This document shows positions 10,379 to 57,618 of a stretch of 64,000 nucleotides of DNA, piece after piece. The stretch is from Candidatus Kaiserbacteria bacterium. GTDB lineage: Bacteria > Patescibacteriota > Minisyncoccia > Phycocordibacterales > Phycocordibacteraceae. The DNA is taken from assembly GCA_963699165.1 (NCBI GenBank), contig OY969413.1:141984-205983 (forward strand). Reading direction: 5' to 3'. Below the pieces are notes generated by a model. The model ran no database searches. It saw only the letters and a program-made list of their open reading frames with translations, and was not told where the DNA came from. Position numbers and translations under genes: made by a program. Numbering within the stretch: position 1 is the first letter of the stretch; each line of letters begins with the position of its first letter.

Positions 10379-10507
10379 GCTGCAGATAGATATACGTGAC
10401 TAAAATATCAAATCAGTAGCCGAGATAGAAGCTCGATCCCACTTCTCTGGATCAGGCGCTGGTTGATAAATACAGAGTATCAGATATGATATTAATTGTC
10501 AATGAAG

Positions 10508-11587
10508 TGTACGCGTCCAGTACTTTTGGCAGTCCCCGACGGTTAATGTACACACAATATACCGCAAGGGGGACACCATGCCGAGCGACTGGTGCGGGCG
10601 TTTGGTGTTGTACCAGATCAGCCAGTCGACAAGCTTCAGATTGAAGGAATGAATATCGTCCCGCAGCAGGCCCCGATTCAGCATGATGAAGTCCTCGGAG
10701 ACGGTGCGATTGAATCGTTCGACGTGGGCATTCATCTTGGGAGTGCGGGGGCGGGTGTGAAAGTGCGTGAGCCCGAGTTCGGCACAGGCATCCTCGAAGT
10801 GTTTGGCGAACTCGCTCCCGTTGTCGGTCTGCAACTCGTCGATATCGAAGGGGCAAACCTCGATGACTCGGCGAAGGAAGTCGTCCGCGCTTCTCGACGA
10901 GTGGTTCGTATACGCGCCCGCAAAGGCGAACTTCCGCTCCACGTCCACTGCCGTGAGGACGTACCGCTTCACGCCGTCGATGAAGCGGACGACGGTATCG
11001 AGCTCCATGCCGCGCTTGCCGGTGCGGCGAAGCTTGGTACGGCGTTTCTGCGGTGTTTCCGTGTGATTGCCCGTACGTGCGTGGAACGAGAGCCGGCTCT
11101 GCTGCGGGAGCAGACCGCGGTTCTTCAAATCCAGAATGACCCGCCCAACGTATGACTCCGACACGGAGTACCCTTCTTCGCGCAGGAGAACGGCAAGCTT
11201 TGCTTTCCCAAGCCGGGGATGCGCCTGTCGTTCGCGGATGATGAAATCCTCGACCTCGGGCAGAACAGTCCTCCTTCGACGCGCCTTCGGCGCAGTGCTC
11301 TTCGGGTCAAGTGCATCAATGCGGCCCTCGTGGGCTTTGAGTTCCTCCTTCCAGCGATACAAGGTGCGCTCCGAGGTGCCAAAGGCGTCGTATGTGGCCT
11401 CCGTCCCGTGCATGTCCCAGAATCCCAATATCTTCACCCGTCTGTCGACTTCCTTTGGTTTCCGCATATGCCGCAATCGTATCGTCCTTTCCCACATGCT
11501 CAACCAGCCCTTCGTACCCCTGAAATTGCTTCTGATGCGCATATATCCTCGGTTATGAGGACTGCCAAATGTATCTGAACTTATGCA
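10508..11587 (-). mobile_element. IS481-family insertion sequence, multi-copy type, copy 1 (1080 bp; ends TGTACGCG...TTATGCA; TSD TGAAG)
   Basis: Identical to copies at 14328, 28564 and 54500. Imperfect terminal IRs share TTTGGCAGTCC. 5-bp direct repeat TGAAG at 10503-10507 and 11588-11592. Sits about 130 bp upstream of cspA. Confidence 0.9.
10509..11542 (-). CDS. IS481-family transposase (HTH + DDE integrase core)
   Basis: 344 aa; MRIRSNFRG ... LDTVVRFIDGVKRYVLTAVDVERKF ... QTDNGSEF ... HFHTRPRTPKMNAHVERFNRTV ... YNTKRPHQSLG. ORF tails after CQKYWTRT differ between copies because they run into flanking DNA. Confidence 0.9.
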
Positions 11588-14318: not shown

Positions 14319-15362
14319 TCAAGTTTTTGTACGCGTCCAGTACTTTTGGCAGTCCCCGACGGTTAATGTACACACAATATACCGCAAGGGGGACACCATG
14401 CCGAGCGACTGGTGCGGGCGTTTGGTGTTGTACCAGATCAGCCAGTCGACAAGCTTCAGATTGAAGGAATGAATATCGTCCCGCAGCAGGCCCCGATTCA
14501 GCATGATGAAGTCCTCGGACACGGTGCGATTGAATCGTTCGACGTGGGCATTCATCTTGGGAGTGCGGGGGCGGGTGTGAAAGTGCGTGAGCCCGAGTTC
14601 GGCACAGGCATCCTCGAAGTGTTTGGCGAACTCGCTCCCGTTGTCGGTCTGCAACTCGTCGATATCGAAGGGGCAAACCTCGATGACTCGGCGAAGGAAG
14701 TCGTCCGCGCTTCTCGACGAGTGGTTCGTATACGCGCCCGCAAAGGCGAACTTCCGCTCCACGTCCACTGCCGTGAGGACGTACCGCTTCACGCCGTCGA
14801 TGAAGCGGACGACGGTATCGAGCTCCATGCCGCGCTTGCCGGTGCGGCGAAGCTTGGTACGGCGTTTCTGCGGTGTTTCCGTGTGATTGCCCGTACGTGC
14901 GTGGAACGAGAGCCGGCTCTGCTGCGGGAGCAGACCGCGGTTCTTCAAATCCAGAATGACCCGCCCAACGTATGACTCCGACACGGAGTACCCTTCTTCG
15001 CGCAGGAGAACGGCAAGCTTTGCTTTCCCAAGCCGGGGATGCGCCTGTCGTTCGCGGATGATGAAATCCTCGACCTCGGGCAGAACAGTCCTCCTTCGAC
15101 GCGCCTTCGGCGCAGTGCTCTTCGGGTCAAGTGCATCAATGCGGCCCTCGTGGGCTTTGAGTTCCTCCTTCCAGCGATACAAGGTGCGCTCCGAGGTGCC
15201 AAAGGCGTCGTATGTGGCCTCCGTCCCGTGCATGTCCCAGAATCCCAATATCTTCACCCGTCTGTCGACTTCCTTTGGTTTCCGCATATGCCGCAATCGT
15301 ATCGTCCTTTCCCACATGCTCAACCAGCCCTTCGTACCCCTGAAATTGCTTCTGATGCGCAT
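14319..15362 (-). CDS. IS481-family transposase (copy 2)
   Basis: Same protein as copy 1; the ORF-track N-terminal extension to 15419 lies outside the element and is not part of it. Confidence 0.85.
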   Translation of the reverse strand: MRIRSNFRGTKGWLSMWERTIRLRHMRKPKEVDRRVKILGFWDMHGTEATYDAFGTSERTLYRWKEELKAHEGRIDALDPKSTAPKARRRRTVLPEVEDFIIRERQAHPRLGKAKLAVLLREEGYSVSESYVGRVILDLKNRGLLPQQSRLSFHARTGNHTETPQKRRTKLRRTGKRGMELDTVVRFIDGVKRYVLTAVDVERKFAFAGAYTNHSSRSADDFLRRVIEVCPFDIDELQTDNGSEFAKHFEDACAELGLTHFHTRPRTPKMNAHVERFNRTVSEDFIMLNRGLLRDDIHSFNLKLVDWLIWYNTKRPHQSLGMVSPLRYIVCTLTVGDCQKYWTRTKT

Positions 15363-15407
15363 ATATCCTCGGTTATGAGGACTGCCAAATGTATCTGAAC
15401 TTATGCA
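14328..15407 (-). mobile_element. IS481-family insertion sequence copy 2 (TSD GTTTT)
   Basis: 1080 bp identical element; GTTTT at 14323-14327 and 15408-15412. Left flank shares 15 nt (CGGCAGTCAAGTTTT) with the flank of the IS fragment at 51752. Confidence 0.9.
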
Positions 15408-15427
15408 GTTTTCCGCCAAAATACGGC

Positions 15428-20041: not shown

Positions 20042-20046
20042 ACGAG

Positions 20047-20097
20047 AAAAGCGCGCGGCGGCATGATTTTCATCATGCCGCCGCGCGCTTTTCTTTT
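20047..20097. terminator. Strong bidirectional terminator
   Basis: AAAAGCGCGCGGCGGCATGAttttcaTCATGCCGCCGCGCGCTTTTCTTTTT. Confidence 0.65.
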
Positions 20098-20106
20098 TGA
20101 CGGGTA

Positions 20107-20772
20107 TTAATTGCCGGTGGTGAGGTTGCTCGCGGGCGTCATGGTGACATTGTCCGAACGATCAATCGACCGGATTACGTAATTGTACGTAGTGCTCGGT
20201 TGAAGTCCGGTAATCGTAATCGATTCGTTTGTCTGAGGCGTAGTGTTTTGCGCGAGCGTGCCGCTGATATAGGGCTGCTGGAAGGGCGCGGTCGCCTCGT
20301 TTGATTGAATCGGTTGCGTGCTGTAATACACCTGTCCCTGCGCCGGTTCGTTCGTCGACCAGCTCAGGGTGGCGCCATTCGAGTTTGTCGTTGCCGAGAA
20401 ATTCGATATTACCGGGACGCTCGTATCGAGTCCGAGACCCGAGTTCATCACGGCATTGATTTTTGCCAAGGTCGCCGGTCCAACGCGGCCGACTTGCGCG
20501 ATGCCGTAGCTAACTTGAAACTGCGTAACAGCGGCCTCTGTGAGGGCGCCGAAGTATCCCGTAACGGCTCCCTGTGGATAGATAAGCGGATTCGTTGCGA
20601 GGAATTGTTGAAGCGCCGTCACGTCGCTGCCGGTCGAACCGAGGCCCAGTTGCGTTGTGAGCGCCGCATTCGCATGCCCGGAACCGGCGGTGAACAAAAC
20701 GGCAAGAAACAGCACCGAAAACACGGATGTCGGCAAGAGATTTTTGCTTACGGAGATTGTGTGCATATTCAT
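20107..20772 (-). CDS. Secreted peptidoglycan-binding (PG_binding_1) plus fibronectin-III-like domain protein
   Basis: Signal peptide; TGSDVTALQQFLATNPLIYPQGAVTGYFGALTEAAVTQFQVSYGIAQVGRVGPAT; C-terminal beta-sandwich-like region. Confidence 0.55.
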   Translation of the reverse strand: MNMHTISVSKNLLPTSVFSVLFLAVLFTAGSGHANAALTTQLGLGSTGSDVTALQQFLATNPLIYPQGAVTGYFGALTEAAVTQFQVSYGIAQVGRVGPATLAKINAVMNSGLGLDTSVPVISNFSATTNSNGATLSWSTNEPAQGQVYYSTQPIQSNEATAPFQQPYISGTLAQNTTPQTNESITITGLQPSTTYNYVIRSIDRSDNVTMTPASNLTTGN

Positions 20773-20889
20773 AAAGGGTATTGAGACAATGCCGATAAAT
20801 AATAAGATGCTGGTCGAATGCTCGGCCGCGTATCCGGCCTCTATGGGCGGTGCCGTTGCATGAAGAGTATGATGACAGCCGCGGCGCGG

Positions 20890-21573
20890 TCATTTCTGTC
20901 CTTTGATGCCCTTGATTTGCCGTTCCAGTTCCTTAATTTGGTTTTCCAATTTGTTTGTTCGTTCGGAAATATTTTCTTCCAACTTCTCCTCCATGTGATG
21001 CGTGTGATTGACGAGCGTTTCCGCGACGCTCATAATTTCAGTCACGTCTTCGATTGCCAGCAAAATGATATCGGGAAACAATTTCGAACCGGCGCTGCCG
21101 GCGAAATAAAATTGCCGCGCGTTCACCAGCAATACTTTTCGCCCGACAAACGGAAAATCGTGCACAAGTTCGAATCCTTTAAAAAAAGCATTTGCGGGTA
21201 AAATATCTTCCAGCAATCTTCTCAATTCGGGAATATTCCACTGTCCGTTTCCGAGTTCATACACCGGGACGAGCTCGGCATCCGTGCGATTAATCTGAAA
21301 TGTCCGGCAAAACTCGTCGTTTACCGCCGTAACGCGCAATTCCGTGTCCAAAATCAATACCGGTTCGCGCGCTATGTCGACGACCGCTTTGACGTACGTC
21401 CATCCTTCTTCCCATACTCGTGCAATGAAATCGTCCCACACGGATGCGGATGTTTTTTGAGGATTATTTTTTATCGCCATATCAGTGAGCCGCACTGCGC
21501 CTCCAATTATTGCGGCGGCGTGTAAACTGGCGCCGCGAATCGCATCTCGATTTGCGGCGCAAAAAATCCGCAA
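20890..21573 (-). CDS. Kinase-less PAS-domain protein with C-terminal coiled coil (paralog of the PAS region of the histidine kinase at 24133..25176)
   Basis: EPVLILDTELRVTAVNDEFCRTFQINRTDAELVPVYELGNGQWNIPELRRLLEDILP aligns with EPLIVLDEDLRVVAASRSFYEDFRLSKESSVDKKFYELDGGKWDIPELRTLLEEVIP of the kinase. It ends in EEKLEENISERTNKLENQIKELERQIKG, with no H-box or ATPase. True start may be the internal Met near 21480. Confidence 0.6.
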   Translation of the reverse strand: MRIFCAANRDAIRGASLHAAAIIGGAVRLTDMAIKNNPQKTSASVWDDFIARVWEEGWTYVKAVVDIAREPVLILDTELRVTAVNDEFCRTFQINRTDAELVPVYELGNGQWNIPELRRLLEDILPANAFFKGFELVHDFPFVGRKVLLVNARQFYFAGSAGSKLFPDIILLAIEDVTEIMSVAETLVNHTHHMEEKLEENISERTNKLENQIKELERQIKGIKGQK

Positions 21574-21631
21574 ATGAAATAGGCGCGAATTTTATCTCAA
21601 AAAGACATTCACCGTACTTTCACTGTAATAG

Positions 21632-22186
21632 GTGTGTAATACGCGGGTGATTTCCCAAATTCCAACACCCTCTATGACTTTCCAAGAACAAATCATGCGT
21701 CAGGCGGCATTGACCGAGGCCTATAACGACCACAGAAAAAAACTAAATTCCTATGCATTTCTTAAGGTGCATAATCAGGCCGTGAGCGAGGATTTGGTGC
21801 AGGAGACCTTTACGAAGACGTGGAAGTATCTCGTGCGGGGCGGGCGCATCGATATCATGAAGGCCTTTCTTTACCACATACTCAACAACCTCATCGTGGA
21901 CGAATACCGGAAGCACAAAAACGTCTCGCTCGATGTTCTTCTCGAAAAAGGATATGAACCGAGCGTTGACACATCGGACCAGATGTTAAACGCGCTCGAC
22001 GGGGATTCGGCGGTCGTACTGATTCAGCGTCTGCCGCCCATGTATCAAAACGTCATACGCATGCGATATGTGCAAGGCCTGACGCTCGCGGAAATGGCGC
22101 TTATTACGGGGAAGTCGAAAAACACGATGGCCGTGCAGGTGCATCGCGGACTCGCAAAGCTCAAACAACTGTACAACCGTACCTAG
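21632..22186 (+). CDS. ECF-type sigma-70 family RNA polymerase sigma factor
   Basis: Region 2 (LVQETFTKTWKYL) and region 4 HTH (LTLAEMALITGKSKNTMAVQVHRGLAKLK). No adjacent canonical anti-sigma factor. Confidence 0.75.
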   Translation: MCNTRVISQIPTPSMTFQEQIMRQAALTEAYNDHRKKLNSYAFLKVHNQAVSEDLVQETFTKTWKYLVRGGRIDIMKAFLYHILNNLIVDEYRKHKNVSLDVLLEKGYEPSVDTSDQMLNALDGDSAVVLIQRLPPMYQNVIRMRYVQGLTLAEMALITGKSKNTMAVQVHRGLAKLKQLYNRT

Positions 22187-22193
22187 GTTGTGC

Positions 22194-22238
22194 GGCTAAC
22201 TGAAAGGGCCGCGCAATGCGCGGCCCTTTCAGTTAGCC
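22194..22238 (+). terminator. Terminator after sigma factor gene
   Basis: GGCTAACTGAAAGGGCCGCGCaatgCGCGGCCCTTTCAGTTAGCC long perfect hairpin. Confidence 0.6.
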
Positions 22239-22473
22239 GCGTAATGCGGCAGCAGAGTAGTCATAGCTATCGACATGATGATCAATAACGAAAGAGCTGA
22301 GAATGCGATCGTGGCCGCGTTTCTTCGCGCATTGTACTCGCCCGAAGATGAAAGAATTATGAAAATAAGGCGTATTCCGGCGTCCGGGCGCCTTCATCTT
22401 GCGTTCATGAGGACAGGGCTACACTGCATTCACGGTGCGGGGATTATTTATTAGAAATGGTACTATTGTCAAT

Positions 22474-23148
22474 ATGAGAATACTTGTTGTCGAAGACGAG
22501 GTAAAGCTCGCCGAGAGCTTGGCCGAAGGGCTCGCAAAAAAGGGGTATGCGGTTGACGCGATACACGACGGCGCAAAGGCGTTCACGCGCATATCAATGT
22601 ACCGCAACGACTACGATTTGGTCATCCTCGATCTCATGCTGCCCTCGATGAGCGGATATGATATCTGCAGGCAGATGCGCGCCGAAGGGATGACCGTGCC
22701 GATTTTGGTGCTGACCGCGCGAAGCGAAATCGACGACAAAGTCCAGCTGCTCCTTGCCGGCGCCGATGACTATCTCGAAAAGCCGTTTTCGTTCGCGGAA
22801 CTCACGGCGCGCATTCAGGCGATATTGCGCCGGCCGACTGCGTCGATTCCGTCGGTGCTGCAGGCGCTCGACATCGAGCTCAATCCTTCAGAGCACACGG
22901 CCGCACGCGACGGAGTTCCGCTCACGCTCACGCTCAAGGAATTCGGCCTGCTTGAATATTTTCTCCGCCATCCGAATCAGGTCGTAAATCGCGAAGATCT
23001 CATCACGCACTTATGGGACTCAAATTACGAGTCATTTAGCAACGTAGTCGATGTCCATGTCAAAAACCTCCGCCAAAAACTTGATCGCGGCTCGTACCCA
23101 AGCATACTGGAGACGGTTCGAGGCATCGGTTACCGGCTTCGCGCATAG
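22474..23148 (+). CDS. OmpR-family two-component response regulator
   Basis: MRILVVEDEVKLAE ... DLVILDLMLP ... LVLTARSEIDDKVQLLLAGADDYLEKPFSFAEL ... winged-helix C-terminus IGYRL. Confidence 0.85.
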   Translation: MRILVVEDEVKLAESLAEGLAKKGYAVDAIHDGAKAFTRISMYRNDYDLVILDLMLPSMSGYDICRQMRAEGMTVPILVLTARSEIDDKVQLLLAGADDYLEKPFSFAELTARIQAILRRPTASIPSVLQALDIELNPSEHTAARDGVPLTLTLKEFGLLEYFLRHPNQVVNREDLITHLWDSNYESFSNVVDVHVKNLRQKLDRGSYPSILETVRGIGYRLRA

Positions 23149-24148
23149 GCATAAACTCAAGCTTTTTTTCCGCGTCGAGACGAAAATCATTCTCGCGCAA
23201 GCGGTGTTCGGCCTGCTCATCATCGGGGTCGTTGCCTTCCTTATCTCGTTTGCGCGCACACGCGGGTTCAATTTGATGAGTACCGATGTTCTCACCGACG
23301 TCGTCATCGTCGCGGTTACCGCGGCGTTTGGATATCTTGTCATGCGGCTTGCGCTTGCGCCGACGCACGAAGCGCTCGTCGCGCAGAAACGATTTATCAA
23401 CAGCATTGCGCACGAACTTCGCACGCCGCTGTCGATTATGCGCATGAATGCCGAAGTGACCTTGCTTGAGGAAAATCTCGACGGGCATATTCGCACGCTG
23501 CTCGATTCGAATATCGAGGAAATCGACCGCACGAGCCATATCATCAACAATGTTTTGCTGATGAGCACGTTTCTCGGACCGGATAAAATGGAGTTTGTCG
23601 ATGTCGATCTCGGCAGGATCGTTGACCGCATGTTGCAGAAGCTCGCACCGCTCGCGGAATACCGCGGCATTCGCATTGTCGTGAAAAAAATCGACGGCGG
23701 GGTAGTCGTCGGCAATGCGCAGGCGCTGGAACATGCCGTCGAAAACATCGTTACCAATGCCATAACCTTCACACCGTTCGGCGGCAAAATAAAAATTACC
23801 ATCGGTCCGGAACGGCGGGGCGCAGTCGATTTAACGGTTGAGGACACGGGCATCGGCATTGAACGAAAAGACATCAAGTCCATACTCGAGCCGTTTTATC
23901 GTTCCGAGACGTCGCGAAATCGCGCATTTGGCGGTTCCGGCCTCGGCCTCGCCATCGTAAATGAAATAGTGAAAATGCACCACGGCAAGATTTACATATG
24001 CAGCGCGCCAGGGAAGGGCACAACCGTGTTCGTCTCGCTTGCCCGAAGCCGCGCGCCGCACGGAGAAAAGAAACCGAATGTCGGTTTCGCCGGCGCCGCG
24101 GCCGATGCCGCAAAAATTCGTCAAAATCTGTCTTACTCGCGCGGATGA
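23051..24148 (+). CDS. Sensor histidine kinase (HisKA + HATPase_c), cognate to the OmpR regulator
   Basis: TM segment, H-box FINSIAHELRTPLS, N/G1/G2 boxes (VEDTGIGI .. GGSGLGLAIV). Start uncertain: first ATG overlaps regulator by about 100 bp. Confidence 0.75.
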   Translation: MSMSKTSAKNLIAARTQAYWRRFEASVTGFAHRHKLKLFFRVETKIILAQAVFGLLIIGVVAFLISFARTRGFNLMSTDVLTDVVIVAVTAAFGYLVMRLALAPTHEALVAQKRFINSIAHELRTPLSIMRMNAEVTLLEENLDGHIRTLLDSNIEEIDRTSHIINNVLLMSTFLGPDKMEFVDVDLGRIVDRMLQKLAPLAEYRGIRIVVKKIDGGVVVGNAQALEHAVENIVTNAITFTPFGGKIKITIGPERRGAVDLTVEDTGIGIERKDIKSILEPFYRSETSRNRAFGGSGLGLAIVNEIVKMHHGKIYICSAPGKGTTVFVSLARSRAPHGEKKPNVGFAGAAADAAKIRQNLSYSRG

Positions 24149-25176
24149 GCAATCGAGACGCTTGTTCCTTTCGGCGAACTTTCGGTGCGAACGACGGCGC
24201 CCAGCTGGCTTGCAAGCGCGCCGACGATGCTGGTGCCGAGTCCGCCGCGGTCACCCTCTCTATTTTTTTCCGTATGGCCGACGCCGTTGTCCCGTACTCC
24301 GAGCGTCCATGCCGAACCGTCCGATTCGTAGGTGACGGTAATTTCCCCTTTTTTTCCGTTCGGAAACGCGTGTTTTATCGAATTGATAACCAACTCGGTG
24401 GTGATAAGCCCCATGCTTATGGCCATATCCGACGACGCGGAGCCCTTGCCCGCGACGACTTCTATTTTAATCGGTTTGCGGTCGGCAATCATCGAACGCT
24501 CCAAGCTGTCGCAGAGCCCTTGCAAATACTTCGAGATTCCCACATCCTCTCCGATGCCGACGGGATCGAGCTGCTGTTCGACCGTTGCGATTGACAAAAT
24601 GCGCTGGTGCGCGTCTTCGAGATGCCGGCGGCTTTCCTTCGATTCGACCGTCTCGGCCTTCAGTATCAAAATGCTCGCAATGAGCTGCAAGCTGTTCGCG
24701 ATGCGATGCCGCATTTCGCGCAGCAGCACGTCTTTTTGCGCCATGAGTTTTTCGCGGTCGAGTTCGAGCGTCCGCCGTGCGGTGACGTCCGAAATCGACA
24801 GCAGCATTTTCCGTTGTTTGTCGGGAAAACGTATTTCACGCGCATTAATAAGAACCGTCCGCGGTTCGGACGCGGGCGAAAGGTGGGATACCTCGTAGCC
24901 GGTTACGACTTTGTGCTTCGGTATCACCTCCTCCAAAAGCGTGCGCAGTTCGGGAATGTCCCATTTCCCGCCGTCGAGTTCGTAAAACTTCTTATCGACG
25001 GACGATTCTTTCGATAGGCGGAAGTCCTCGTAAAAAGAACGGCTTGCGGCGACCACGCGCAAATCCTCATCAAGGACAATCAGCGGCTCGCGAATGGTAT
25101 CTATGATTGCGCGCGAAAGGACGTGCCCATCTTTTGAGTCATCGAGCGGATCAAAGACCCTCTGCGGATTCTCCAT
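24133..25176 (-). CDS. Cytoplasmic PAS-domain HisKA_2/HWE-type sensor histidine kinase
   Basis: N-terminal PAS, H-box REMRHRIANSLQLIASIL (HisKA_2 type), HATPase_c (DNGVG ... GGLGTSIV). Convergent with the other kinase gene. Confidence 0.7.
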   Translation of the reverse strand: MENPQRVFDPLDDSKDGHVLSRAIIDTIREPLIVLDEDLRVVAASRSFYEDFRLSKESSVDKKFYELDGGKWDIPELRTLLEEVIPKHKVVTGYEVSHLSPASEPRTVLINAREIRFPDKQRKMLLSISDVTARRTLELDREKLMAQKDVLLREMRHRIANSLQLIASILILKAETVESKESRRHLEDAHQRILSIATVEQQLDPVGIGEDVGISKYLQGLCDSLERSMIADRKPIKIEVVAGKGSASSDMAISMGLITTELVINSIKHAFPNGKKGEITVTYESDGSAWTLGVRDNGVGHTEKNREGDRGGLGTSIVGALASQLGAVVRTESSPKGTSVSIAHPRE

Positions 25177-25286
25177 GTACTCACACTATACTGCATGTTA
25201 ATGAAAGTAAAATGAATTTCTGGGGATGGCGATAGCAGGTCGTAAATTCACGCATTCTCCATGATGAAAAGGGTACTTTTAGTTGC

Positions 25287-26538: not shown

Positions 26539-27599
26539 GGCGACTAGTCTTTTGAATTCGAACGTTTGATACATTGAGCGAATGAAAAAACCTCCGGCGG
26601 TGCGCACTTCACAAGGTCCGAACGAGACGAAATACAGATACTGTTAGCGAAGGGATACTCTTTGCAAGATGTCGGAGATGCACTCGACCGACCGAAGAGT
26701 GTCATATGGTACGAGACGCAAAAGAAGAGGAAGGGACGGCCGTATGATGCTGCATATGCGCATCACATTTCATACGTACGAAGGAAATACAGCCGAGCGG
26801 TCGGCAAGATGATTGCTCTCGACCCGAAGCTCCGGAAGTTCATCGAGGCGCATCTCTTCGACGATCAGTCGCCCGAAAACATCTCACTTCGATTGAAGCG
26901 GATCGAGAAGGATATCGGATATGCTTCATCCTCGGCTATACGCCGATATATCAAGAGCCCGTATGGCAGACGGATCGAGTCGCATCGAGCAAAGTTATTC
27001 AAGAAGAGGCGACGCTCTCGGCCATCGAAACCACACATTGCCGACAAGCGCCTGATCGACAAACGACCGAGCAAAATCAACAAGCGATGGGGATTGGGTC
27101 ACATGGAGGGCGACTTCATCGTGTCGGGCAAGAGCGGTCAAGGCATCATTCTTGGTCTGCGGGATCGCAGGGTGCGCAAAAACCTGCTGGAGCGGATCCT
27201 GCCAGTGTCAGTGCGAAACGTGGAGCGAGCGCTTCGCAGAATGAAAAAGCGGTATCCCGAGATGCAGACCATCACATTCGACAACGATATTCTCTTTCTC
27301 GAACACAAACGGCTAGAGAAGGTGCTTGGGGTGAAGATATATTTCTGTCATGTGCATGCGCCATGGGAGAAGCCATCAATCGAGAATCTGAACAAGGACT
27401 TGCGGCGGTACATCCCGAAAAGCTCGGATATTTCAAAGTATTCAAAAAGATTTGTGCAGAAACTCGAAGCAAAGATGAATCGCCGCTTCATGGATGTGCT
27501 CGGTTCACTCACGCCAGATGAGGCGTATGCTGCGGAAAAGAAACAACGCGCTCAGAGGAGCGCAAAAAACCGTCGTTCGAATTGAGGGGTTTGGGTGCC
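26539..27599 (+). mobile_element. IS30-family insertion sequence copy A (1061 bp, TSD CGC)
   Basis: Identical to copies at 35958..37018 and 46880..47940 (both minus). Ends GGCGACTAGTCTTTTGAATTCGAACG / CGTTCGAATTGAGGGGTTTGGGTGCC form imperfect IRs. CGC at 26536-38 and 27600-02. Confidence 0.85.
26662..27585 (+). CDS. IS30-family transposase
   Basis: 307 aa; N-terminal HTH, DDE core HMEGDFIVSGKS ... ITFDNDILF ... CHVHAPWEKPSIENLNKDLRRY. Confidence 0.9.
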   Translation: MQDVGDALDRPKSVIWYETQKKRKGRPYDAAYAHHISYVRRKYSRAVGKMIALDPKLRKFIEAHLFDDQSPENISLRLKRIEKDIGYASSSAIRRYIKSPYGRRIESHRAKLFKKRRRSRPSKPHIADKRLIDKRPSKINKRWGLGHMEGDFIVSGKSGQGIILGLRDRRVRKNLLERILPVSVRNVERALRRMKKRYPEMQTITFDNDILFLEHKRLEKVLGVKIYFCHVHAPWEKPSIENLNKDLRRYIPKSSDISKYSKRFVQKLEAKMNRRFMDVLGSLTPDEAYAAEKKQRAQRSAKNRRSN

Positions 27600-28554: not shown

Positions 28555-29598
28555 TCAGCGACATGTACGCGTCCAGTACTTTTGGCAGTCCCCGACGGTT
28601 AATGTACACACAATATACCGCAAGGGGGACACCATGCCGAGCGACTGGTGCGGGCGTTTGGTGTTGTACCAGATCAGCCAGTCGACAAGCTTCAGATTGA
28701 AGGAATGAATATCGTCCCGCAGCAGGCCCCGATTCAGCATGATGAAGTCCTCGGAGACGGTGCGATTGAATCGTTCGACGTGGGCATTCATCTTGGGAGT
28801 GCGGGGGCGGGTGTGAAAGTGCGTGAGCCCGAGTTCGGCACAGGCATCCTCGAAGTGTTTGGCGAACTCGCTCCCGTTGTCGGTCTGCAACTCGTCGATA
28901 TCGAAGGGGCAAACCTCGATGACTCGGCGAAGGAAGTCGTCCGCGCTTCTCGACGAGTGGTTCGTATACGCGCCCGCAAAGGCGAACTTCCGCTCCACGT
29001 CCACTGCCGTGAGGACGTACCGCTTCACGCCGTCGATGAAGCGGACGACGGTATCGAGCTCCATGCCGCGCTTGCCGGTGCGGCGAAGCTTGGTACGGCG
29101 TTTCTGCGGTGTTTCCGTGTGATTGCCCGTACGTGCGTGGAACGAGAGCCGGCTCTGCTGCGGGAGCAGACCGCGGTTCTTCAAATCCAGAATGACCCGC
29201 CCAACGTATGACTCCGACACGGAGTACCCTTCTTCGCGCAGGAGAACGGCAAGCTTTGCTTTCCCAAGCCGGGGATGCGCCTGTCGTTCGCGGATGATGA
29301 AATCCTCGACCTCGGGCAGAACAGTCCTCCTTCGACGCGCCTTCGGCGCAGTGCTCTTCGGGTCAAGTGCATCAATGCGGCCCTCGTGGGCTTTGAGTTC
29401 CTCCTTCCAGCGATACAAGGTGCGCTCCGAGGTGCCAAAGGCGTCGTATGCGGCCTCCGTCCCGTGCATGTCCCAGAATCCCAATATCTTCACCCGTCTG
29501 TCGACTTCCTTTGGTTTCCGCATATGCCGCAATCGTATCGTCCTTTCCCACATGCTCAACCAGCCCTTCGTACCCCTGAAATTGCTTCTGATGTGCAT
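28555..29598 (-). CDS. IS481-family transposase (copy 3)
   Basis: Same protein; one M-to-H substitution near N-terminus (MHIRSNFRG). Confidence 0.85.
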   Translation of the reverse strand: MHIRSNFRGTKGWLSMWERTIRLRHMRKPKEVDRRVKILGFWDMHGTEAAYDAFGTSERTLYRWKEELKAHEGRIDALDPKSTAPKARRRRTVLPEVEDFIIRERQAHPRLGKAKLAVLLREEGYSVSESYVGRVILDLKNRGLLPQQSRLSFHARTGNHTETPQKRRTKLRRTGKRGMELDTVVRFIDGVKRYVLTAVDVERKFAFAGAYTNHSSRSADDFLRRVIEVCPFDIDELQTDNGSEFAKHFEDACAELGLTHFHTRPRTPKMNAHVERFNRTVSEDFIMLNRGLLRDDIHSFNLKLVDWLIWYNTKRPHQSLGMVSPLRYIVCTLTVGDCQKYWTRTCR

Positions 29599-29643
29599 AT
29601 ATCCTCGGTTATGAGGACTGCCAAATGTATCTGAACTTATGCA
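28564..29643 (-). mobile_element. IS481-family insertion sequence copy 3 (TSD CGACA)
   Basis: CGACA at 28559-28563 and 29644-29648; inserted about 50 bp upstream of tsaC start. Confidence 0.9.
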
Positions 29644-29696
29644 CGACAACGTGTTGGACGCGGGACAATTTCCTCACATCTGATATGTTTTCTGGA

Positions 29697-35957: not shown

Positions 35958-37018
35958 GGCACCCAAACCCCTCAATTCGAACGACGGTTTTTTGCGCTCC
36001 TCTGAGCGCGTTGTTTCTTTTCCGCAGCATACGCCTCATCTGGCGTGAGTGAACCGAGCACATCCATGAAGCGGCGATTCATCTTTGCTTCGAGTTTCTG
36101 CACAAATCTTTTTGAATACTTTGAAATATCCGAGCTTTTCGGGATGTACCGCCGCAAGTCCTTGTTCAGATTCTCGATTGATGGCTTCTCCCATGGCGCA
36201 TGCACATGACAGAAATATATCTTCACCCCAAGCACCTTCTCTAGCCGTTTGTGTTCGAGAAAGAGAATATCGTTGTCGAATGTGATGGTCTGCATCTCGG
36301 GATACCGCTTTTTCATTCTGCGAAGCGCTCGCTCCACGTTTCGCACTGACACTGGCAGGATCCGCTCCAGCAGGTTTTTGCGCACCCTGCGATCCCGCAG
36401 ACCAAGAATGATGCCTTGACCGCTCTTGCCCGACACGATGAAGTCGCCCTCCATGTGACCCAATCCCCATCGCTTGTTGATTTTGCTCGGTCGTTTGTCG
36501 ATCAGGCGCTTGTCGGCAATGTGTGGTTTCGATGGCCGAGAGCGTCGCCTCTTCTTGAATACCTTTGCTCGATGCGACTCGATCCGTCTGCCATACGGGC
36601 TCTTGATATATCGGCGTATAGCCGAGGATGAAGCATATCCGATATCCTTCTCGATCCGCTTCAATCGAAGTGAGATGTTTTCGGGCGACTGATCGTCGAA
36701 GAGATGCGCCTCGATGAACTTCCGGAGCTTCGGGTCGAGAGCAATCATCTTGCCGACCGCTCGGCTGTATTTCCTTCGTACGTATGAAATGTGATGCGCA
36801 TATGCAGCATCATACGGCCGTCCCTTCCTCTTCTTTTGCGTCTCGTACCATATGACACTCTTCGGTCGGTCGAGTGCATCTCCGACATCTTGCAAAGAGT
36901 ATCCCTTCGCTAACAGTATCTGTATTTCGTCTCGTTCGGACCTTGTGAAGTGCGCACCGCCGGAGGTTTTTTCATTCGCTCAATGTATCAAACGTTCGAA
37001 TTCAAAAGACCAGTCGCC
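35958..37018 (-). mobile_element. IS30-family insertion sequence copy B (TSD AAA on plus strand)
   Basis: AAA at 35955-57 and 37019-21; inverted relative to copy A. Confidence 0.85.
35972..36895 (-). CDS. IS30-family transposase (copy B)
   Basis: Same 307-aa protein with one K/V substitution (RAKVFKK). Confidence 0.9.
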   Translation of the reverse strand: MQDVGDALDRPKSVIWYETQKKRKGRPYDAAYAHHISYVRRKYSRAVGKMIALDPKLRKFIEAHLFDDQSPENISLRLKRIEKDIGYASSSAIRRYIKSPYGRRIESHRAKVFKKRRRSRPSKPHIADKRLIDKRPSKINKRWGLGHMEGDFIVSGKSGQGIILGLRDRRVRKNLLERILPVSVRNVERALRRMKKRYPEMQTITFDNDILFLEHKRLEKVLGVKIYFCHVHAPWEKPSIENLNKDLRRYIPKSSDISKYSKRFVQKLEAKMNRRFMDVLGSLTPDEAYAAEKKQRAQRSAKNRRSN

Positions 37019-46879: not shown

Positions 46880-47940
46880 GGCACCCAAACCCCTCAATTC
46901 GAACGACGGTTTTTTGCGCTCCTCTGAGCGCGTTGTTTCTTTTCCGCAGCATACGCCTCATCTGGCGTGAGTGAACCGAGCACATCCATGAAGCGGCGAT
47001 TCATCTTTGCTTCGAGTTTCTGCACAAATCTTTTTGAATACTTTGAAATATCCGAGCTTTTCGGGATGTACCGCCGCAAGTCCTTGTTCAGATTCTCGAT
47101 TGATGGCTTCTCCCATGGCGCATGCACATGACAGAAATATATCTTCACCCCAAGCACCTTCTCTAGCCGTTTGTGTTCGAGAAAGAGAATATCGTTGTCG
47201 AATGTGATGGTCTGCATCTCGGGATACCGCTTTTTCATTCTGCGAAGCGCTCGCTCCACGTTTCGCACTGACACTGGCAGGATCCGCTCCAGCAGGTTTT
47301 TGCGCACCCTGCGATCCCGCAGACCAAGAATGATGCCTTGACCGCTCTTGCCCGACACGATGAAGTCGCCCTCCATGTGACCCAATCCCCATCGCTTGTT
47401 GATTTTGCTCGGTCGTTTGTCGATCAGGCGCTTGTCGGCAATGTGTGGTTTCGATGGCCGAGAGCGTCGCCTCTTCTTGAATAACTTTGCTCGATGCGAC
47501 TCGATCCGTCTGCCATACGGGCTCTTGATATATCGGCGTATAGCCGAGGATGAAGCATATCCGATATCCTTCTCGATCCGCTTCAATCGAAGTGAGATGT
47601 TTTCGGGCGACTGATCGTCGAAGAGATGCGCCTCGATGAACTTCCGGAGCTTCGGGTCGAGAGCAATCATCTTGCCGACCGCTCGGCTGTATTTCCTTCG
47701 TACGTATGAAATGTGATGCGCATATGCAGCATCATACGGCCGTCCCTTCCTCTTCTTTTGCGTCTCGTACCATATGACACTCTTCGGTCGGTCGAGTGCA
47801 TCTCCGACATCTTGCAAAGAGTATCCCTTCGCTAACAGTATCTGTATTTCGTCTCGTTCGGACCTTGTGAAGTGCGCACCGCCGGAGGTTTTTTCATTCG
47901 CTCAATGTATCAAACGTTCGAATTCAAAAGACCAGTCGCC
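46880..47940 (-). mobile_element. IS30-family insertion sequence copy C (imperfect TSD)
   Basis: Identical 1061 bp; flanks give TTG/GTG (2 of 3) in element orientation; about 28 bp upstream of the KGG gene start. Confidence 0.85.
46894..47817 (-). CDS. IS30-family transposase (copy C)
   Basis: Identical to copy A protein. Confidence 0.9.
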   Translation of the reverse strand: MQDVGDALDRPKSVIWYETQKKRKGRPYDAAYAHHISYVRRKYSRAVGKMIALDPKLRKFIEAHLFDDQSPENISLRLKRIEKDIGYASSSAIRRYIKSPYGRRIESHRAKLFKKRRRSRPSKPHIADKRLIDKRPSKINKRWGLGHMEGDFIVSGKSGQGIILGLRDRRVRKNLLERILPVSVRNVERALRRMKKRYPEMQTITFDNDILFLEHKRLEKVLGVKIYFCHVHAPWEKPSIENLNKDLRRYIPKSSDISKYSKRFVQKLEAKMNRRFMDVLGSLTPDEAYAAEKKQRAQRSAKNRRSN

Positions 47941-50998: not shown

Positions 50999-51160
50999 GC
51001 GTGAGCGGAAGCGAGCGTATTTGCTAAAATTGCCCGATGACCAAAAATAATTGCCGGCGGCATTGTTTGCATAAAAGAAAACCGCCCCTTCATCGCCCCT
51101 TCATCGTACTGAAGGGGCAGGTGTTAGGGCGGACGACGTAGCCCGATGCGGTTCGAGGTC

Positions 51161-54481: not shown

Positions 54482-55534
54482 TCATAGTCCGCAATGGTAT
54501 GTACGCGTCCAGTACTTTTGGCAGTCCCCGACGGTTAATGTACACACAATATACCGCAAGGGGGACACCATGCCGAGCGACTGGTGCGGGCGTTTGGTGT
54601 TGTACCAGATCAGCCAGTCGACAAGCTTCAGATTGAAGGAATGAATATCGTCCCGCAGCAGGCCCCGATTCAGCATGATGAAGTCCTCGGAGACGGTGCG
54701 ATTGAATCGTTCGACGTGGGCATTCATCTTGGGAGTGCGGGGGCGGGTGTGAAAGTGCGTGAGCCCGAGTTCGGCACAGGCATCCTCGAAGTGTTTGGCG
54801 AACTCGCTCCCGTTGTCGGTCTGCAACTCGTCGATATCGAAGGGGCAAACCTCGATGACTCGGCGAAGGAAGTCGTCCGCGCTTCTCGACGAGTGGTTCG
54901 TATACGCGCCCGCAAAGGCGAACTTCCGCTCCACGTCCACTGCCGTGAGGACGTACCGCTTCACGCCGTCGATGAAGCGTACGACGGTATCGAGCTCCAT
55001 GCCGCGCTTGCCGGTGCGGCGAAGCTTGGTACGGCGTTTCTGCGGTGTTTCCGTGTGATTGCCCGTACGTGCGTGGAACGAGAGCCGGCTCTGCTGCGGG
55101 AGCAGACCGCGGTTCTTCAAATCCAGAATGACCCGCCCAACGTATGACTCCGACACGGAGTACCCTTCTTCGCGCAGGAGAACGGCAAGCTTTGCTTTCC
55201 CAAGCCGGGGATGCGCCTGTCGTTCGCGGATGATGAAATCCTCGACCTCGGGCAGAACAGTCCTCCTTCGACGCGCCTTCGGCGCAGTGCTCTTCGGGTC
55301 AAGTGCATCAATGCGGCCCTCGTGGGCTTTGAGTTCCTCCTTCCAGCGATACAAGGTGCGCTCCGAGGTGCCAAAGGCGTCGTATGTGGCCTCCGTCCCG
55401 TGCATGTCCCAGAATCCCAATATCTTCACCCGTCTGTCGACTTCCTTTGGTTTCCGCATATGCCGCAATCGTATCGTCCTTTCCCACATGCTCAACCAGC
55501 CCTTCGTACCCCTGAAATTGCTTCTGATGCGCAT
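54482..55534 (-). CDS. IS481-family transposase (copy 4)
   Basis: Same protein, one D-to-Y substitution (VDEAYDGIEL on opposite-frame shadow corresponds to a single nt change). Confidence 0.85.
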   Translation of the reverse strand: MRIRSNFRGTKGWLSMWERTIRLRHMRKPKEVDRRVKILGFWDMHGTEATYDAFGTSERTLYRWKEELKAHEGRIDALDPKSTAPKARRRRTVLPEVEDFIIRERQAHPRLGKAKLAVLLREEGYSVSESYVGRVILDLKNRGLLPQQSRLSFHARTGNHTETPQKRRTKLRRTGKRGMELDTVVRFIDGVKRYVLTAVDVERKFAFAGAYTNHSSRSADDFLRRVIEVCPFDIDELQTDNGSEFAKHFEDACAELGLTHFHTRPRTPKMNAHVERFNRTVSEDFIMLNRGLLRDDIHSFNLKLVDWLIWYNTKRPHQSLGMVSPLRYIVCTLTVGDCQKYWTRTYHCGL

Positions 55535-55579
55535 ATATCCTCGGTTATGAGGACTGCCAAATGTATCTGAACTTATGCA
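54500..55579 (-). mobile_element. IS481-family insertion sequence copy 4 (TSD TGGTA)
   Basis: TGGTA at 54495-54499 and 55580-55584; inserted 52 bp from the tRNA. Confidence 0.9.
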
Positions 55580-55603
55580 TGGTAGAATATGCGCGGCAGA
55601 CAT

Positions 55604-55822
55604 ATGTATATAAAAGTATTCGTTACTCCCGGGGCGAAACGAGAAAAGGTTGAAGAGAAAGGCGAGACGCTCGCCGTTTCGGTCCGCGAACCGGCGGCGG
55701 GGAACCGGGCAAATGACCGCGTCCGCGCGGTCATTGCCGAGCGGCTCAGCGTGCCGTTTGGCAAAGTGCGCATCCTGACAGGACACCGTTCAAGAGCTAA
55801 AATGATAAGCGTTACCAACTGA
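55604..55822 (+). CDS. DUF167/YggU-family small protein
   Basis: MYIKVFVTPGAKREKVEEKGETLAVSVREPAAGNRANDRV matches the YggU N-terminus pattern. Confidence 0.55.
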   Translation: MYIKVFVTPGAKREKVEEKGETLAVSVREPAAGNRANDRVRAVIAERLSVPFGKVRILTGHRSRAKMISVTN

Positions 55823-55833
55823 CCTTTCCTCGT

Positions 55834-56196
55834 ATGAATATCACCATCAAGGCGACTGACAAACCGTTAAGCACGGAAGCGCAGCTTTTTATTGAAAAGA
55901 AATTTTCCGCGCTGGAAAAACTTGTTGGGAGTTCAACCGATTCGGCATTGCTCGCGTGCGAAATCGACGAACCGGTCGAGCTTGCGCGTGACGGGCTCAA
56001 GTTTCGAGTCGAAGGAAATCTTACCGTTGACGGGAAATTGTATCGCGCCGAATCGAGAAGCGTCACGCTCGAAGGCGCGGTTGACGGCGTGCGCGACGAC
56101 CTCATGCGCGACCTGCGCACTTCGCGCGGCAAGCAGCGCGGGCTCGTGCGCCGCGGCGGAGCGGCGCTGAAGCAGATGCTTCGTTTCGGCCGCTAG
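55834..56196 (+). CDS. hpf: Ribosome hibernation promoting factor / RaiA (short form)
   Basis: MNITIKATDKPLSTEAQLFIEKKFSALEKL, typical HPF N-terminus and length. Confidence 0.7.
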   Translation: MNITIKATDKPLSTEAQLFIEKKFSALEKLVGSSTDSALLACEIDEPVELARDGLKFRVEGNLTVDGKLYRAESRSVTLEGAVDGVRDDLMRDLRTSRGKQRGLVRRGGAALKQMLRFGR

Positions 56197-57116
56197 TCGT
56201 CGCGCAATCCCGACGGCGCATTGTTTTTCGCGAAGTCGCCGTAATTCATTTCGCGTTTGCCCTCCGGCACAACGCGCTCGATGACGAACTTTCCGTTCGT
56301 GAAATGCGCGACGACGATTTTTATGCGTTTGCCCTGCGCGAAAAAATACGTGCCGATGCTGTCGGCGTATGCGCGGTATTTGTTCCAGTTTGCTTCCGCG
56401 GGCGCGTCGAGCGAAAGCAGGCCGTCTTCTTTCGAGAGTTTGCGCGAGCGCGTGGCTTTTGAAGCGTCCTGCGCAATCGGCGTGATGTCGCCGCGCTCAA
56501 ATGCCGGCAAGGTGTCGGCGAGAAGATTCGCGCCGAGCGCGATGAGCCGCGGACGAAGTTCTCGCGCCGTGTCGGAGAGCGCAATCGGCGTCGCTGCTTG
56601 CGCGATGATATCGCCTGCATCGAGTTCTTTCACCATCTTCTGCACCGTAACGCCCGTTTCTTTTTCGCCTGCAAGAAGCGCGCCTTCAAGCGGCGTTGCG
56701 CCGCGGTATTTCGGCAGAAGTGAATAATGCACGTTCAATACGCCGAGCGGAAAGGCGTCAATCAATTCCTGAGGAAAAATTTTTCCATAGGCGACGACGA
56801 CGGCATATTCGCAGCCGTGCTCGCGAATGGCCGCAACGGTTTCCGCGTCGAGCGAAAGCGGCGTACTAACCGTGAGTCCGCGGTCGAGCGCGAGCATCTT
56901 CGTTTCCGACGGCGTGAGTTCGAGCCCGCGGCCGCGCGGCGCGTCCGGTGAAGTAATAATGAGAGCCGGTGAAAAGCCGCGCTCAATGAGAATCGCGAGC
57001 GTGTCGCTCGCAACTTTCGGCGTGCCAAAGTACGCGAAGCGAAGCGGAGTCCCTTCGCTCGTCCGCGAGCGTTGTTGGACAAATTTTTTATGTGACGGCG
57101 GCATGTTCAACATCAA
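56193..57116 (-). CDS. fmt: Methionyl-tRNA formyltransferase
   Basis: LRFAYFGTPKVAS ... VVVAYGKIFP ... LNVHYSLLPKYRGATPLEGALLAGEKETGVTVQ (formyl-transferase SLLP and HxSLLPxxRG motifs). Confidence 0.8.
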   Translation of the reverse strand: MMLNMPPSHKKFVQQRSRTSEGTPLRFAYFGTPKVASDTLAILIERGFSPALIITSPDAPRGRGLELTPSETKMLALDRGLTVSTPLSLDAETVAAIREHGCEYAVVVAYGKIFPQELIDAFPLGVLNVHYSLLPKYRGATPLEGALLAGEKETGVTVQKMVKELDAGDIIAQAATPIALSDTARELRPRLIALGANLLADTLPAFERGDITPIAQDASKATRSRKLSKEDGLLSLDAPAEANWNKYRAYADSIGTYFFAQGKRIKIVVAHFTNGKFVIERVVPEGKREMNYGDFAKNNAPSGLRDD

Positions 57117-57618
57117 CTAAATTTTCCGCATGGTCGATAAACAAAATGCCGTTTAGATGGTCGATTTCGTGTTCGAAGATTTGCGCCATCAGCCCGCCCG
57201 CGCCGCGTTCCACTTTCGAACCGTCCGGACGCCGCGCGCGAATCGTGACGCGCTCGTGCCGATCGGTAATCCCATATATGCCGCGGACGGAGAGGCATCC
57301 TTCGTCGGAACGCTTACGTTTGCGCGAGGTTTTTACGATTTCAGGATTTATGTATGCTTCGACTTCGGGAGCCGGGGAGCCGGTTTCCCGTGAGTCCTCG
57401 TGCGGAGGAGGAAGCGTACGGTCCTTTCGCACGATGAAAATCCGATAAGGAATGCCGATTTGCGGCGCGGCGAGCGCAACGCCTTCAAGGTACGGGTCAA
57501 GCGCCTCTTCCATGTCATTGAGGATGCCCGCAAGTTCCGCCGAGCCGAAAAGATCTTCCGGAAGCGGTTTTGCTATGCCGCGCAGTATTGGCGCGCCGTC
57601 CTGCACGATGTTCTTCAT
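57088..57618 (-). CDS. def: Peptide deformylase
   Basis: GVALAAPQIG (motif 1), EGCLS (motif 2), HEIDHLNG (motif 3); overlaps fmt start by 29 bp as in def-fmt operons. Confidence 0.85.
   Translation of the reverse strand: MKNIVQDGAPILRGIAKPLPEDLFGSAELAGILNDMEEALDPYLEGVALAAPQIGIPYRIFIVRKDRTLPPPHEDSRETGSPAPEVEAYINPEIVKTSRKRKRSDEGCLSVRGIYGITDRHERVTIRARRPDGSKVERGAGGLMAQIFEHEIDHLNGILFIDHAENLVDVEHAAVT

Follow-up and report, generated by a model that had tools for sequence, protein, structure and literature searches.

Extracytoplasmic function (ECF) sigma factors that lack an anti-sigma factor and are controlled by an adjacent two-component system represent an established mode of regulation, exemplified by SigE-CseBC (ECF39) and by ECF234 (PMC8999054). 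We analysed a gene cluster with elements of this mode in a Candidatus Kaiserbacteria bacterium of the phylum Patescibacteriota. The cluster occupies positions 20,890 to 25,176 of a 64,000-nucleotide stretch (GenBank assembly GCA_963699165.1, contig OY969413.1, positions 141,984 to 205,983 of the forward strand), which is referred to below as the window. It encodes a small protein composed of a PAS domain and a coiled coil (PAS-CC), an ECF-type sigma factor transcribed divergently from it, an OmpR-type response regulator with its membrane histidine kinase, and a convergent cytoplasmic PAS-HisKA_2 kinase (HK2); a PG_binding_1/fn3 protein (PGB) is encoded beyond PAS-CC. The divergent sigma/PAS-CC pair is the most conserved feature of the locus among the relatives compared, and the system is a non-canonical form of ECF signalling from a radiation that is poorly understood. 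There appears to be no earlier description: neither a search of the literature for an ECF/PAS pair in Patescibacteria or Parcubacteria nor one of the papers that review and reclassify ECF factors brought up anything relevant. Patescibacteria have tiny genomes and few regulators, and almost none of their regulation has been characterised experimentally. The analysis defines for them a lineage-wide sigma/PAS pair, a predicted promoter motif and a first predicted regulon of peptidoglycan-binding and surface or envelope proteins, and its predictions are testable without cultivating the organisms.

The divergent sigma factor and PAS protein

Two sets of loci from relatives, labelled L followed by a number, were compared with the window: 80 from species genomes, anchored on PAS-CC, and 80 from metagenomes, anchored on the sigma factor, of which 57 had enough flanking sequence. 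A divergent sigma gene was located 5′ of PAS-CC in 69 of the 80 PAS-CC-anchored loci and was no more than 400 bp away in 50; six of the 11 loci without it have less than 1.3 kb of flank. In the reciprocal test a divergent PAS-CC gene was present in 49 of the 57 sigma-anchored loci, and PAS-CC was the first divergent neighbour of the sigma gene in 119 of 137 combined loci. Clustering of all adjacent ORFs (open reading frames) returned PAS-CC, the sigma factor, PGB, a YggT-like protein and a GlsB/YeaQ-like membrane protein as the recurrent families, and across the 83 loci no regulator other than PAS-CC recurred beside the pair. In 26 of 73 loci PAS-CC was followed by a PGB orthologue at a distance of no more than 500 bp. 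Pairwise distances of the sigma factor and PAS-CC were correlated (r = 0.50; partial r = 0.47 given PGB), both proteins correlated more weakly with PGB, and these values lend weak support to co-evolution of the pair. In some genomes PAS-CC is present as two or three paralogues in tandem (L007, L043, L044, L070 and L072); one paralogue in L043 has 319 residues and two PAS domains, and in L007 a co-directional sigma gene is flanked by PAS-CC copies.

A first-pass annotation of the window had described a five-gene order with PAS-CC facing an ECF sigma factor, and the ORF list and Pfam confirmed this order together with all coordinates and strands. Pfam detected PAS alone in the ORF at 20890-21573 on the minus strand (PAS_8, at its cut-off) and Sigma70_r2 and r4_2, with nothing else, in the ORF at 21632-22186 on the plus strand. 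The remaining ORFs carried Response_reg and Trans_reg_C (22435-23148, plus; 100 and 91.6 bits), HisKA and HATPase_c (23051-24148, plus), and PAS_4, HisKA_2 and HATPase_c (24133-25176, minus). In the public annotation of this metagenome-assembled Minisyncoccia genome the five genes have consecutive accessions and generic names only. The reading frame of PAS-CC extends back to a TTG at 21573, and the start was assigned to the ATG at 21480, which gives 196 residues, because of the homologues and the position of the promoter; for the same two reasons the sigma start was placed at the ATG at 21674 in an ORF that opens at 21632.

The window sigma factor passes the NCBIfam sigma70-ECF superfamily model TIGR02937 (66.7 bits against a cut-off of 42.9), and it consists of sigma2 and sigma4 domains without sigma3 or sigma1.1, the composition of an ECF (group IV) factor. 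No NCBIfam equivalog model reaches its cut-off on this protein, the SigE-family model scoring 65 bits against 141.55. Its orthologues are 48-64% identical to it. The first-pass annotation had noted the absence of a canonical anti-sigma gene next to the sigma gene, and this observation stands: no anti-sigma-like ORF was found beside the window sigma gene, and no ORF fits between the gene and the hairpin that follows it, or downstream. The hairpin (22192-22240) has no T tract after its stem; it is likely a transcription stop, which would make the sigma gene monocistronic, as it is in the inspected relatives L001, L003 and L006. An Rfam scan of the window returned a single tRNA and no RNA family match inside the cluster.

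PAS-CC belongs to a large and conserved family. A search of 5.8 billion proteins returned 1647 homologues, the best 120 of which have 163-270 residues (mostly about 193) and 53-62% identity, and the named sources among these 120 are all Patescibacteria (Kaiserbacteria, Wolfebacteria, Paceibacterota and Minisyncoccota). Relatives are encoded in at least 566 GTDB species genomes. In an alignment of 26 diverse members the mean column identity was 65%, and the motif YELGNGQW(N/D)IP, the N-terminal helix WEESWTYIK and His159 were invariant or almost so; on this alignment the family is under strong constraint. The window protein carries a lineage-specific insertion of four residues, EENI, at coiled-coil residues 168-171 (the region from His159 to the insertion is encoded at about 20965-21006). 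The AlphaFold2 model (predicted local distance difference test score 82.6) comprises an N-terminal helix (residues 11-36), a PAS core (41-145) and a long C-terminal helix (147-195), whose final 22 or so residues show a clean heptad pattern with hydrophobic residues at 3-4 spacing. Neither a zf-HC2/RsrA-like nor a NepR/CnrY-like anti-sigma domain was found in PAS-CC; Pfam reports PAS only and NCBIfam no match, and a PDB sequence search with the family profile gave no match at E ≤ 0.01. The PAS subtype as such is common: a profile search against 1.84 billion cluster representatives gave 9519 clusters at 50% identity. The best matches of that search are multi-PAS proteins of the same subtype and are uninformative on sigma fusions.

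An ECF-type promoter motif and its predicted regulon

In the relatives, the divergent intergenic regions contain the motif TGTAAT-N16-CGGC (or CGTC) in both orientations. Across 83 loci there were 168 exact matches to TGTAAT-N15-17-CG[GT]C, whereas simulation gave 7.1 on average and 10 at most. The motif was present 5′ of the sigma gene in 47 of 73 loci, of PAS-CC in 37 of 83 and of PGB in 25 of 35, and also 5′ of whichever gene follows PAS-CC. The CGGC element ends about 10 nt ahead of the sigma and PAS-CC start codons in the relatives, and 8 nt ahead for the window PAS-CC. This spacing suggests that both transcripts are nearly leaderless, and no Shine-Dalgarno sequence lies between CGGC and the start codon in relatives L007-L170 or in the window (21481-21488). 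The window PGB site lies 80 nt before the ATG, compared with a median gap of 71 nt in the relatives, and the PAS-CC promoter of L018, CGTAAC-N16-CGGC, may be compared with CGCAAT-N16-CGGC in the window.

The sigma promoters are distinguished by a second TGTAAT 11 nt 5′ of the first, which was present in 70 of 84 sigma promoters (for example L014, L020, L023 and L033) versus none of 50 PAS-CC and none of 37 PGB promoters. The downstream half-site of the resulting tandem, TGTAAT-N5-TGTAAT, serves at the same time as the ECF-type promoter's -35 element. In the window the tandem is unique, with 0.13 expected.

We infer that the sigma factor recognises TGTAAT-N16-CGGC. The occurrence of one promoter on the sigma gene, PAS-CC and PGB makes it very probable that the sigma factor directs transcription of the sigma gene itself, of PAS-CC and of envelope or surface genes, which would place PAS-CC in the sigma regulon, and PGB is likely a further member. 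Small GlsB/YeaQ (Transgly_assoc) and YggT-like membrane proteins are encoded near sigma/PAS-CC in 24 and 20 of the 83 loci, and also near HK2 (L173:2608-3032; L175:5338-5613). Because some of these genes carry TGTAAT-N16-CGGC, they are probable additional members. Between PAS-CC and PGB, L001 (6590-10038) and L003 (6644-10010) encode Ice_binding (DUF3494) surface proteins, a DUF5670 peptide and sortases, which hints at a regulon concerned with sortase-anchored surface proteins. On the other side of the window PGB, a very long perfect hairpin (20046-20093), a 20-bp bidirectional terminator, separates it from a bestrophin-like gene.

Membership of PAS-CC in the regulon raises the question of whether it is more than a product of it. 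PAS-CC could be merely an output of the sigma factor, a small cytoplasmic sensor acting on an unlinked target, whose adjacency to the sigma gene reflects a shared divergent promoter region. It does share its promoter with genes such as PGB that are clearly structural targets, it lacks an anti-sigma domain, and its best whole-length structural matches are the effector-less short LOV proteins (Foldseek, query-normalised TM-score up to 0.58), whose partners are likewise unlinked and not known. We consider this explanation unlikely. No other regulon member comes close to the adjacency of about 87-93% that PAS-CC has with the sigma gene (PGB reaches about 36%), and the sigma factor and PAS-CC are both slow-evolving, in a correlated manner. 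Work on ECF classification, moreover, reportedly takes a conserved neighbour to be the cognate regulator as a rule. The reading that we favour is that PAS-CC may be the cognate cytoplasmic sensor of the sigma factor, a non-canonical, anti-sigma-like feedback partner. It was arrived at because PAS-CC appears to be co-induced with the sigma factor, is its sole conserved neighbour and is accompanied by no anti-sigma gene, and it is the most uncertain part of the model presented below.

The two-component genes and their putative regulator boxes

The response regulator of the window combines a receiver with a winged-helix Trans_reg_C domain, the architecture of the OmpR/PhoB family, and has orthologues in L172 (phmmer E = 8e-126) and L097 (63% identity). 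The membrane kinase has two hydrophobic segments about 10 residues apart, as in intramembrane-sensing kinases. HK2, whose gene is convergent with that of the membrane kinase and overlaps it by 16 nt, had been assigned to the HisKA_2/HWE type. The HisKA_2 half of this assignment was borne out (59.7 bits against a cut-off of 22.3, with an H-box and a HATPase domain), but the HWE_HK model remained below threshold (18 against 22.8 bits). The best NCBIfam match of HK2 is PhyK, far under its cut-off (86.7 against 750). HK2 represents a family of conserved Patescibacteria kinases of 346 residues with 58-72% identity, and the H-box, EMRHRIANSLQ, is invariant across the family alignment.

Ten contexts anchored on HK2, the window included, were compared. 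An OmpR-type regulator adjoins HK2 in four of them (window, L087, L172 and L174), and the convergent trio of regulator, kinase and HK2 recurs in L172. Genes of the sigma module are likewise present in four of the ten (window, L171, L174 and L175), and HK2 adjoins the sigma/PAS-CC module in three different gene orders: that of the window; that of L171, in which HK2 and a single-domain receiver are followed by PGB and PAS-CC on the opposite strand and then by the sigma gene; and that of L156, in which HK2 is convergent on PAS-CC. In L174 a PAS-CC paralogue lies near HK2.

These contexts bear on the suggestion of the first-pass annotation that PAS-CC forms a heterodimer with HK2, through the homologous PAS domain and the coiled coil, as a dominant-negative or scaffold subunit. 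Given that the sigma factor is predicted to induce PAS-CC, feedback would then run from the kinase through the regulator, the sigma factor and PAS-CC back to the kinase. The likeness of the two PAS domains on which the suggestion was founded is real: they share 34% identity over 145 residues (E = 8e-26), and the family profiles match at E = 6.5e-37. Both families are conserved in the same lineage, HK2 adjoins or lies near PAS-CC genes in the loci just described, and PAS-CC is modelled as built like the sensor module of a kinase minus its catalytic part. We nevertheless regard the heterodimer as improbable. The first-pass annotation had made linkage in relatives a touchstone for both partners, and linkage held for the sigma factor, which is near PAS-CC in about 87-93% of loci, but not for HK2, which lies within about 5 kb in only one (L156) of the 160 PAS-CC- or sigma-anchored loci, despite the four of ten seen from the HK2 side. 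The identity of the PAS domains is 34-38% and no more, and the profile alignment covers the PAS core only (residues 30-149 of PAS-CC against 21-134 of HK2). The conserved N-terminal (WEESWTYIK) and C-terminal helices of PAS-CC are without counterpart in HK2, and since such helices are the usual dimer interfaces of PAS proteins, the interfaces would be family-specific. Finally, the promoter of HK2 has a regulator box and no sigma motif, and the heterodimer leaves unexplained why PAS-CC tracks the sigma factor rather than HK2.

A related possibility, that PAS-CC is a decayed duplicate of the kinase with a degenerate H-box, was checked and rejected, as homology stops at the PAS core and the family is strongly conserved, with its 65% column identity. 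In the profile comparison neither terminal helix aligns to the dimerisation and histidine phosphotransfer (DHp) domain or H-box of HK2. The conserved His159 lies 14 residues past the DVT motif, as read from the sequence, and the H-box histidine 27 past it; His159 has a core-like position in the C-terminal helix and is out of register with the kinase H-box.

The direct repeat TTCAY-N6-TTCAY occurs five times in the window against 0.61 expected, and none of 100 shuffles reached five. Four of the five lie in promoter positions inside the 4.3-kb cluster: two at the regulator operon, one at HK2 and one at the sigma gene. An 11-bp period is typical of the direct repeats bound by OmpR-family regulators, and the regulator is predicted to bind these boxes. 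A -10-like hexamer lies 8 nt before the ATG of HK2 and about 50 nt before that of the regulator gene. Among the relatives, a box with a -10 element was found 5′ of HK2 in L088, L089, L172 and L173, 5′ of the regulator gene in L087, L097 and L172, and 5′ of the sigma gene in L018/L134, L118 and L156, with L156 and L018/L134 arranged as in the window. The concentration of boxes at the regulator, HK2 and sigma promoters is strong, unlike their overall excess. The fifth box of the window, at 51089, was set aside as probably coincidental; it falls in a terminator-like hairpin after an unrelated ORF. HK2 promoters are of two types, one with CTTCAY-N5-CTTCAY and an extended -10 element like GGTGTACTAT (L088, L089, L172, L173 and window 25185-25216), and one with CTCGCTT...GGGTATAC and no repeat (L087, L174 and L177).

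The boxes also bear on whether the two-component genes belong to the circuit at all. Rearrangement driven by insertion sequences could have placed an unrelated two-component system and an orphan kinase beside sigma/PAS-CC by chance. At least eight insertion-sequence copies in the window, two of them within 3.5 kb of HK2, fit such an origin, as do the variable contexts of HK2 and the occurrence of sigma/PAS-CC in most relatives without a two-component gene nearby. We hold a fortuitous juxtaposition to be very improbable, since four of the five boxes in 64 kb fall in the cluster, one of them abutting the sigma promoter, since a box recurs 5′ of the sigma gene in the relatives named above, and since several gene orders repeatedly bring HK2 or regulator genes next to the module. 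The density of insertion sequences is high for a streamlined genome of about 1 Mb, and nearby copies may explain local rearrangement. Four are identical 1061-nt IS30-like copies (26539-27599, 35958-37018, 46880-47940 and about 56180-57240) whose transposase has no Pfam match, and four are near-identical elements of the rve/HTH_32 type (ORFs 10499-11542, 14319-15419, 28555-29649 and 54482-55786), with a diverged copy near 51740.

In some relatives, regulator-kinase pairs replace PAS-CC beside the sigma gene or separate the two. A neighbour-joining tree of sigma factors, which is too shallow to separate paralogue groups, did not join the regulator-adjacent copies into a clade; L018 and L134 were among the nearest neighbours of the window sigma factor. 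The sigma copies beside a regulator-kinase pair rather than PAS-CC (L143, L144, L168, L030 and L023:6420-7135) have no TGTAAT promoter, and AT-rich GTTAAT...CTTAAT repeats are common to the sigma upstream regions of L143, L144, L168 and L023. These promoters suggest repeated rewiring of the sigma family to two-component control.

Table 1 Features of the cluster and its immediate surroundings, with positions in the window.
Feature	Position	Strand	Basis or remark
PGB, secreted PG_binding_1 + fn3/Pur_ac_phosph_N protein	20107-20772	-	Pfam
ECF-type promoter-like site TGTCAT-N16-CGGC, 5′ of PGB	20852-20877	-	One mismatch to consensus
PAS-CC gene, 196 residues	20890-21480	-	Pfam, homologues, AlphaFold2
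ECF-type promoter-like site CGCAAT-N16-CGGC, 5′ of PAS-CC	21489-21514	-	Two mismatches, -35 element
Putative OmpR-type regulator box TTCAC-N6-TTCAC, abuts sigma promoter	21608-21623	+	Repeat scan
Tandem TGTAAT-N5-TGTAAT, sigma promoter	21624-21640	+	As in sigma promoters of relatives
ECF-type (group IV) sigma factor, 170 residues	21674-22186	+	Pfam, NCBIfam
Perfect 28-bp stem-loop directly 3′ of sigma stop codon	22192-22240	+	RNAfold, -54 kcal/mol
Putative regulator box TTCAT-N6-TTCAT, inverted, 5′ of regulator operon	22348-22363	-	Repeat scan
Putative regulator box TTCAT-N6-TTCAT, 5′ of regulator gene	22393-22408	+	Repeat scan
-10-like TACACT, 11 nt downstream of box 22393-22408	22420-22425	+	Sequence reading
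OmpR/PhoB-family response regulator gene	22474-23148	+	Pfam, NCBIfam
HisKA histidine kinase, two transmembrane segments	23051-24148	+	Pfam; exact start uncertain
HK2, cytoplasmic PAS-HisKA_2-HATPase kinase	24133-25176	-	Pfam
-10-like TATAGT, 10 nt downstream of box 25201-25216	25185-25190	-	Sequence reading
Putative regulator box TTCAT-N6-TTCAT, 5′ of HK2	25201-25216	-	Repeat scan

A proposed circuit and its place among described systems

We propose that the cluster joins two modules. The first, found lineage-wide, consists of the ECF-type sigma factor divergent from a short PAS protein of about 193 residues, often with PGB next to it; the second consists of the OmpR-type regulator, the intramembrane-sensing HisKA kinase and the convergent cytoplasmic PAS-HisKA_2 kinase. 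Both kinases would feed the regulator, and the phosphorylated regulator would activate its own operon, HK2 and the sigma gene. The boxes at these three promoters suggest a cascade from the two-component system to the sigma factor and on to PAS-CC and envelope proteins. In this lineage the regulator would have taken over transcription of the sigma gene, whose autoregulatory -10 element would have decayed. A coiled-coil dimer of PAS-CC would bind the sigma factor and free it once the PAS domain senses its signal, so that PAS-CC provides feedback. This two-module model, taken as a whole, appears to us somewhat more probable than not.

Several observations weigh against the model. About 40% of relatives have no strict match to the promoter motif, and over the window as a whole it shows no enrichment (5 sites versus 7 expected at one mismatch). 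The window sigma promoter keeps a perfect -35 tandem and has no CGGC -10 element at N16 spacing, and the -35 element of the window PAS-CC promoter, with its two mismatches, is degenerate. Two-component genes are near the sigma gene in a minority of genomes and are of at least two non-orthologous types. The boxes are short and their excess across all relatives is modest (30 versus 19.6), and all promoter and box assignments derive from sequence. PAS-CC carries no recognisable anti-sigma domain, and genes for cognate anti-sigma factors are usually co-transcribed with the sigma gene, not divergent from it.

A bolder reading, possible but doubtful, is that PAS-CC represents a new class of cytoplasmic regulator, a dimer by which the main alternative sigma factor of Paceibacteria/Minisyncoccota is kept sequestered, and that the PAS domain of HK2 may relieve this by a homotypic partner switch. 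The PAS-CC:PAS-CC dimer would then compete with a PAS-CC:kinase heterodimer, and a large branch of the candidate phyla radiation would have its core environmental switch in this system. Control of the sigma factor by PAS-CC would extend the known regulation of ECF sigma factors by a fully cytoplasmic, PAS-based input, and an action of PAS-CC on the kinase would make it a natural case of a sensor-only paralogue that tunes a histidine kinase.

The first-pass annotation had also drawn a parallel with the general stress response of Alphaproteobacteria, and here the comparison failed. As in EcfG-NepR-PhyR (ECF15), the sigma gene is divergent from a putative regulatory gene that shares the predicted sigma-dependent promoter, the cluster includes a PAS-HisKA_2 kinase, and a single-domain receiver occurs in the L171 neighbourhood. 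In contrast to that system, no PhyR-like protein (sigma-like domain plus receiver) was found in the window or among the conserved neighbours, the OmpR-type regulator is the only receiver protein of the window and no further sigma-like protein is encoded there, and the interval from the promoter to the sigma gene has no room for a NepR-sized ORF. The promoter is also of another type, TGTAAT-N16-CGGC as opposed to the GGAAC-N16-17-CGTT of EcfG, and the phylum is different.

The architecture of PAS-CC, with an A'alpha helix, a PAS core, a J-alpha coiled coil and no effector, is that of the short LOV proteins PpSB1-LOV, PF5-LOV and SBW25-LOV, and PF5-LOV and PpSB1/2-LOV are its Foldseek matches. 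PAS-CC differs from them in sequence (10-14% identity), in its far longer C-terminal helix of about 48 residues and in having a conserved genomic partner, the sigma factor. The flavin-binding motif with the photoactive cysteine (GXNCRFLQ) is absent from the PAS-CC alignment, and the invariant YELGNGQW(N/D)IP is found instead.

The binding consensus of WalR/VicR is TGTWAH-N5-TGTWAH, refined to TGTWAHA-N4-TGTWAHA (PMC4168254), and the sigma-promoter tandem, cTGTAATa-N4-TGTAATa, fits it exactly. The gene context concerns the cell wall in both cases, and the likeness is one of resemblance only: no WalR orthologue was identified, and the window regulator seems to use another box, TTCAY.

The sigma factor resembles other ECF (group IV) factors in its two domains, in a bipartite promoter whose -35 element contains AA and whose -10 element, at N16 spacing, is rich in CG, in the presence among relatives of the same motif on its own gene and on that of its neighbour, and in its predicted envelope/surface regulon. 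It departs from classic ECF systems in that the neighbour is a soluble PAS and coiled-coil protein without a class I, II or III anti-sigma domain, encoded divergently and not co-transcribed. An extra copy of a -35-like element 11 nt 5′ and the near-leaderless transcripts predicted here are further differences.

The cluster as a whole also has a parallel in Streptomyces SigE-CseABC. Both have the order sigma factor, OmpR-type regulator and kinase, both lack an anti-sigma gene, both share a cell-envelope theme, and a direct repeat of the type bound by such regulators, a putative site, lies 5′ of the window sigma gene. The cluster departs from SigE-CseABC by an additional HisKA_2 kinase, which is cytoplasmic, and by the lack of a CseA-like lipoprotein. 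The arrangement is also lineage-specific, as most orthologous sigma factors appear to be autoregulated and are paired with PAS-CC, and the boxes of the window offer a concrete example of rewiring, in which an autoregulated ECF sigma factor has apparently moved under two-component control.

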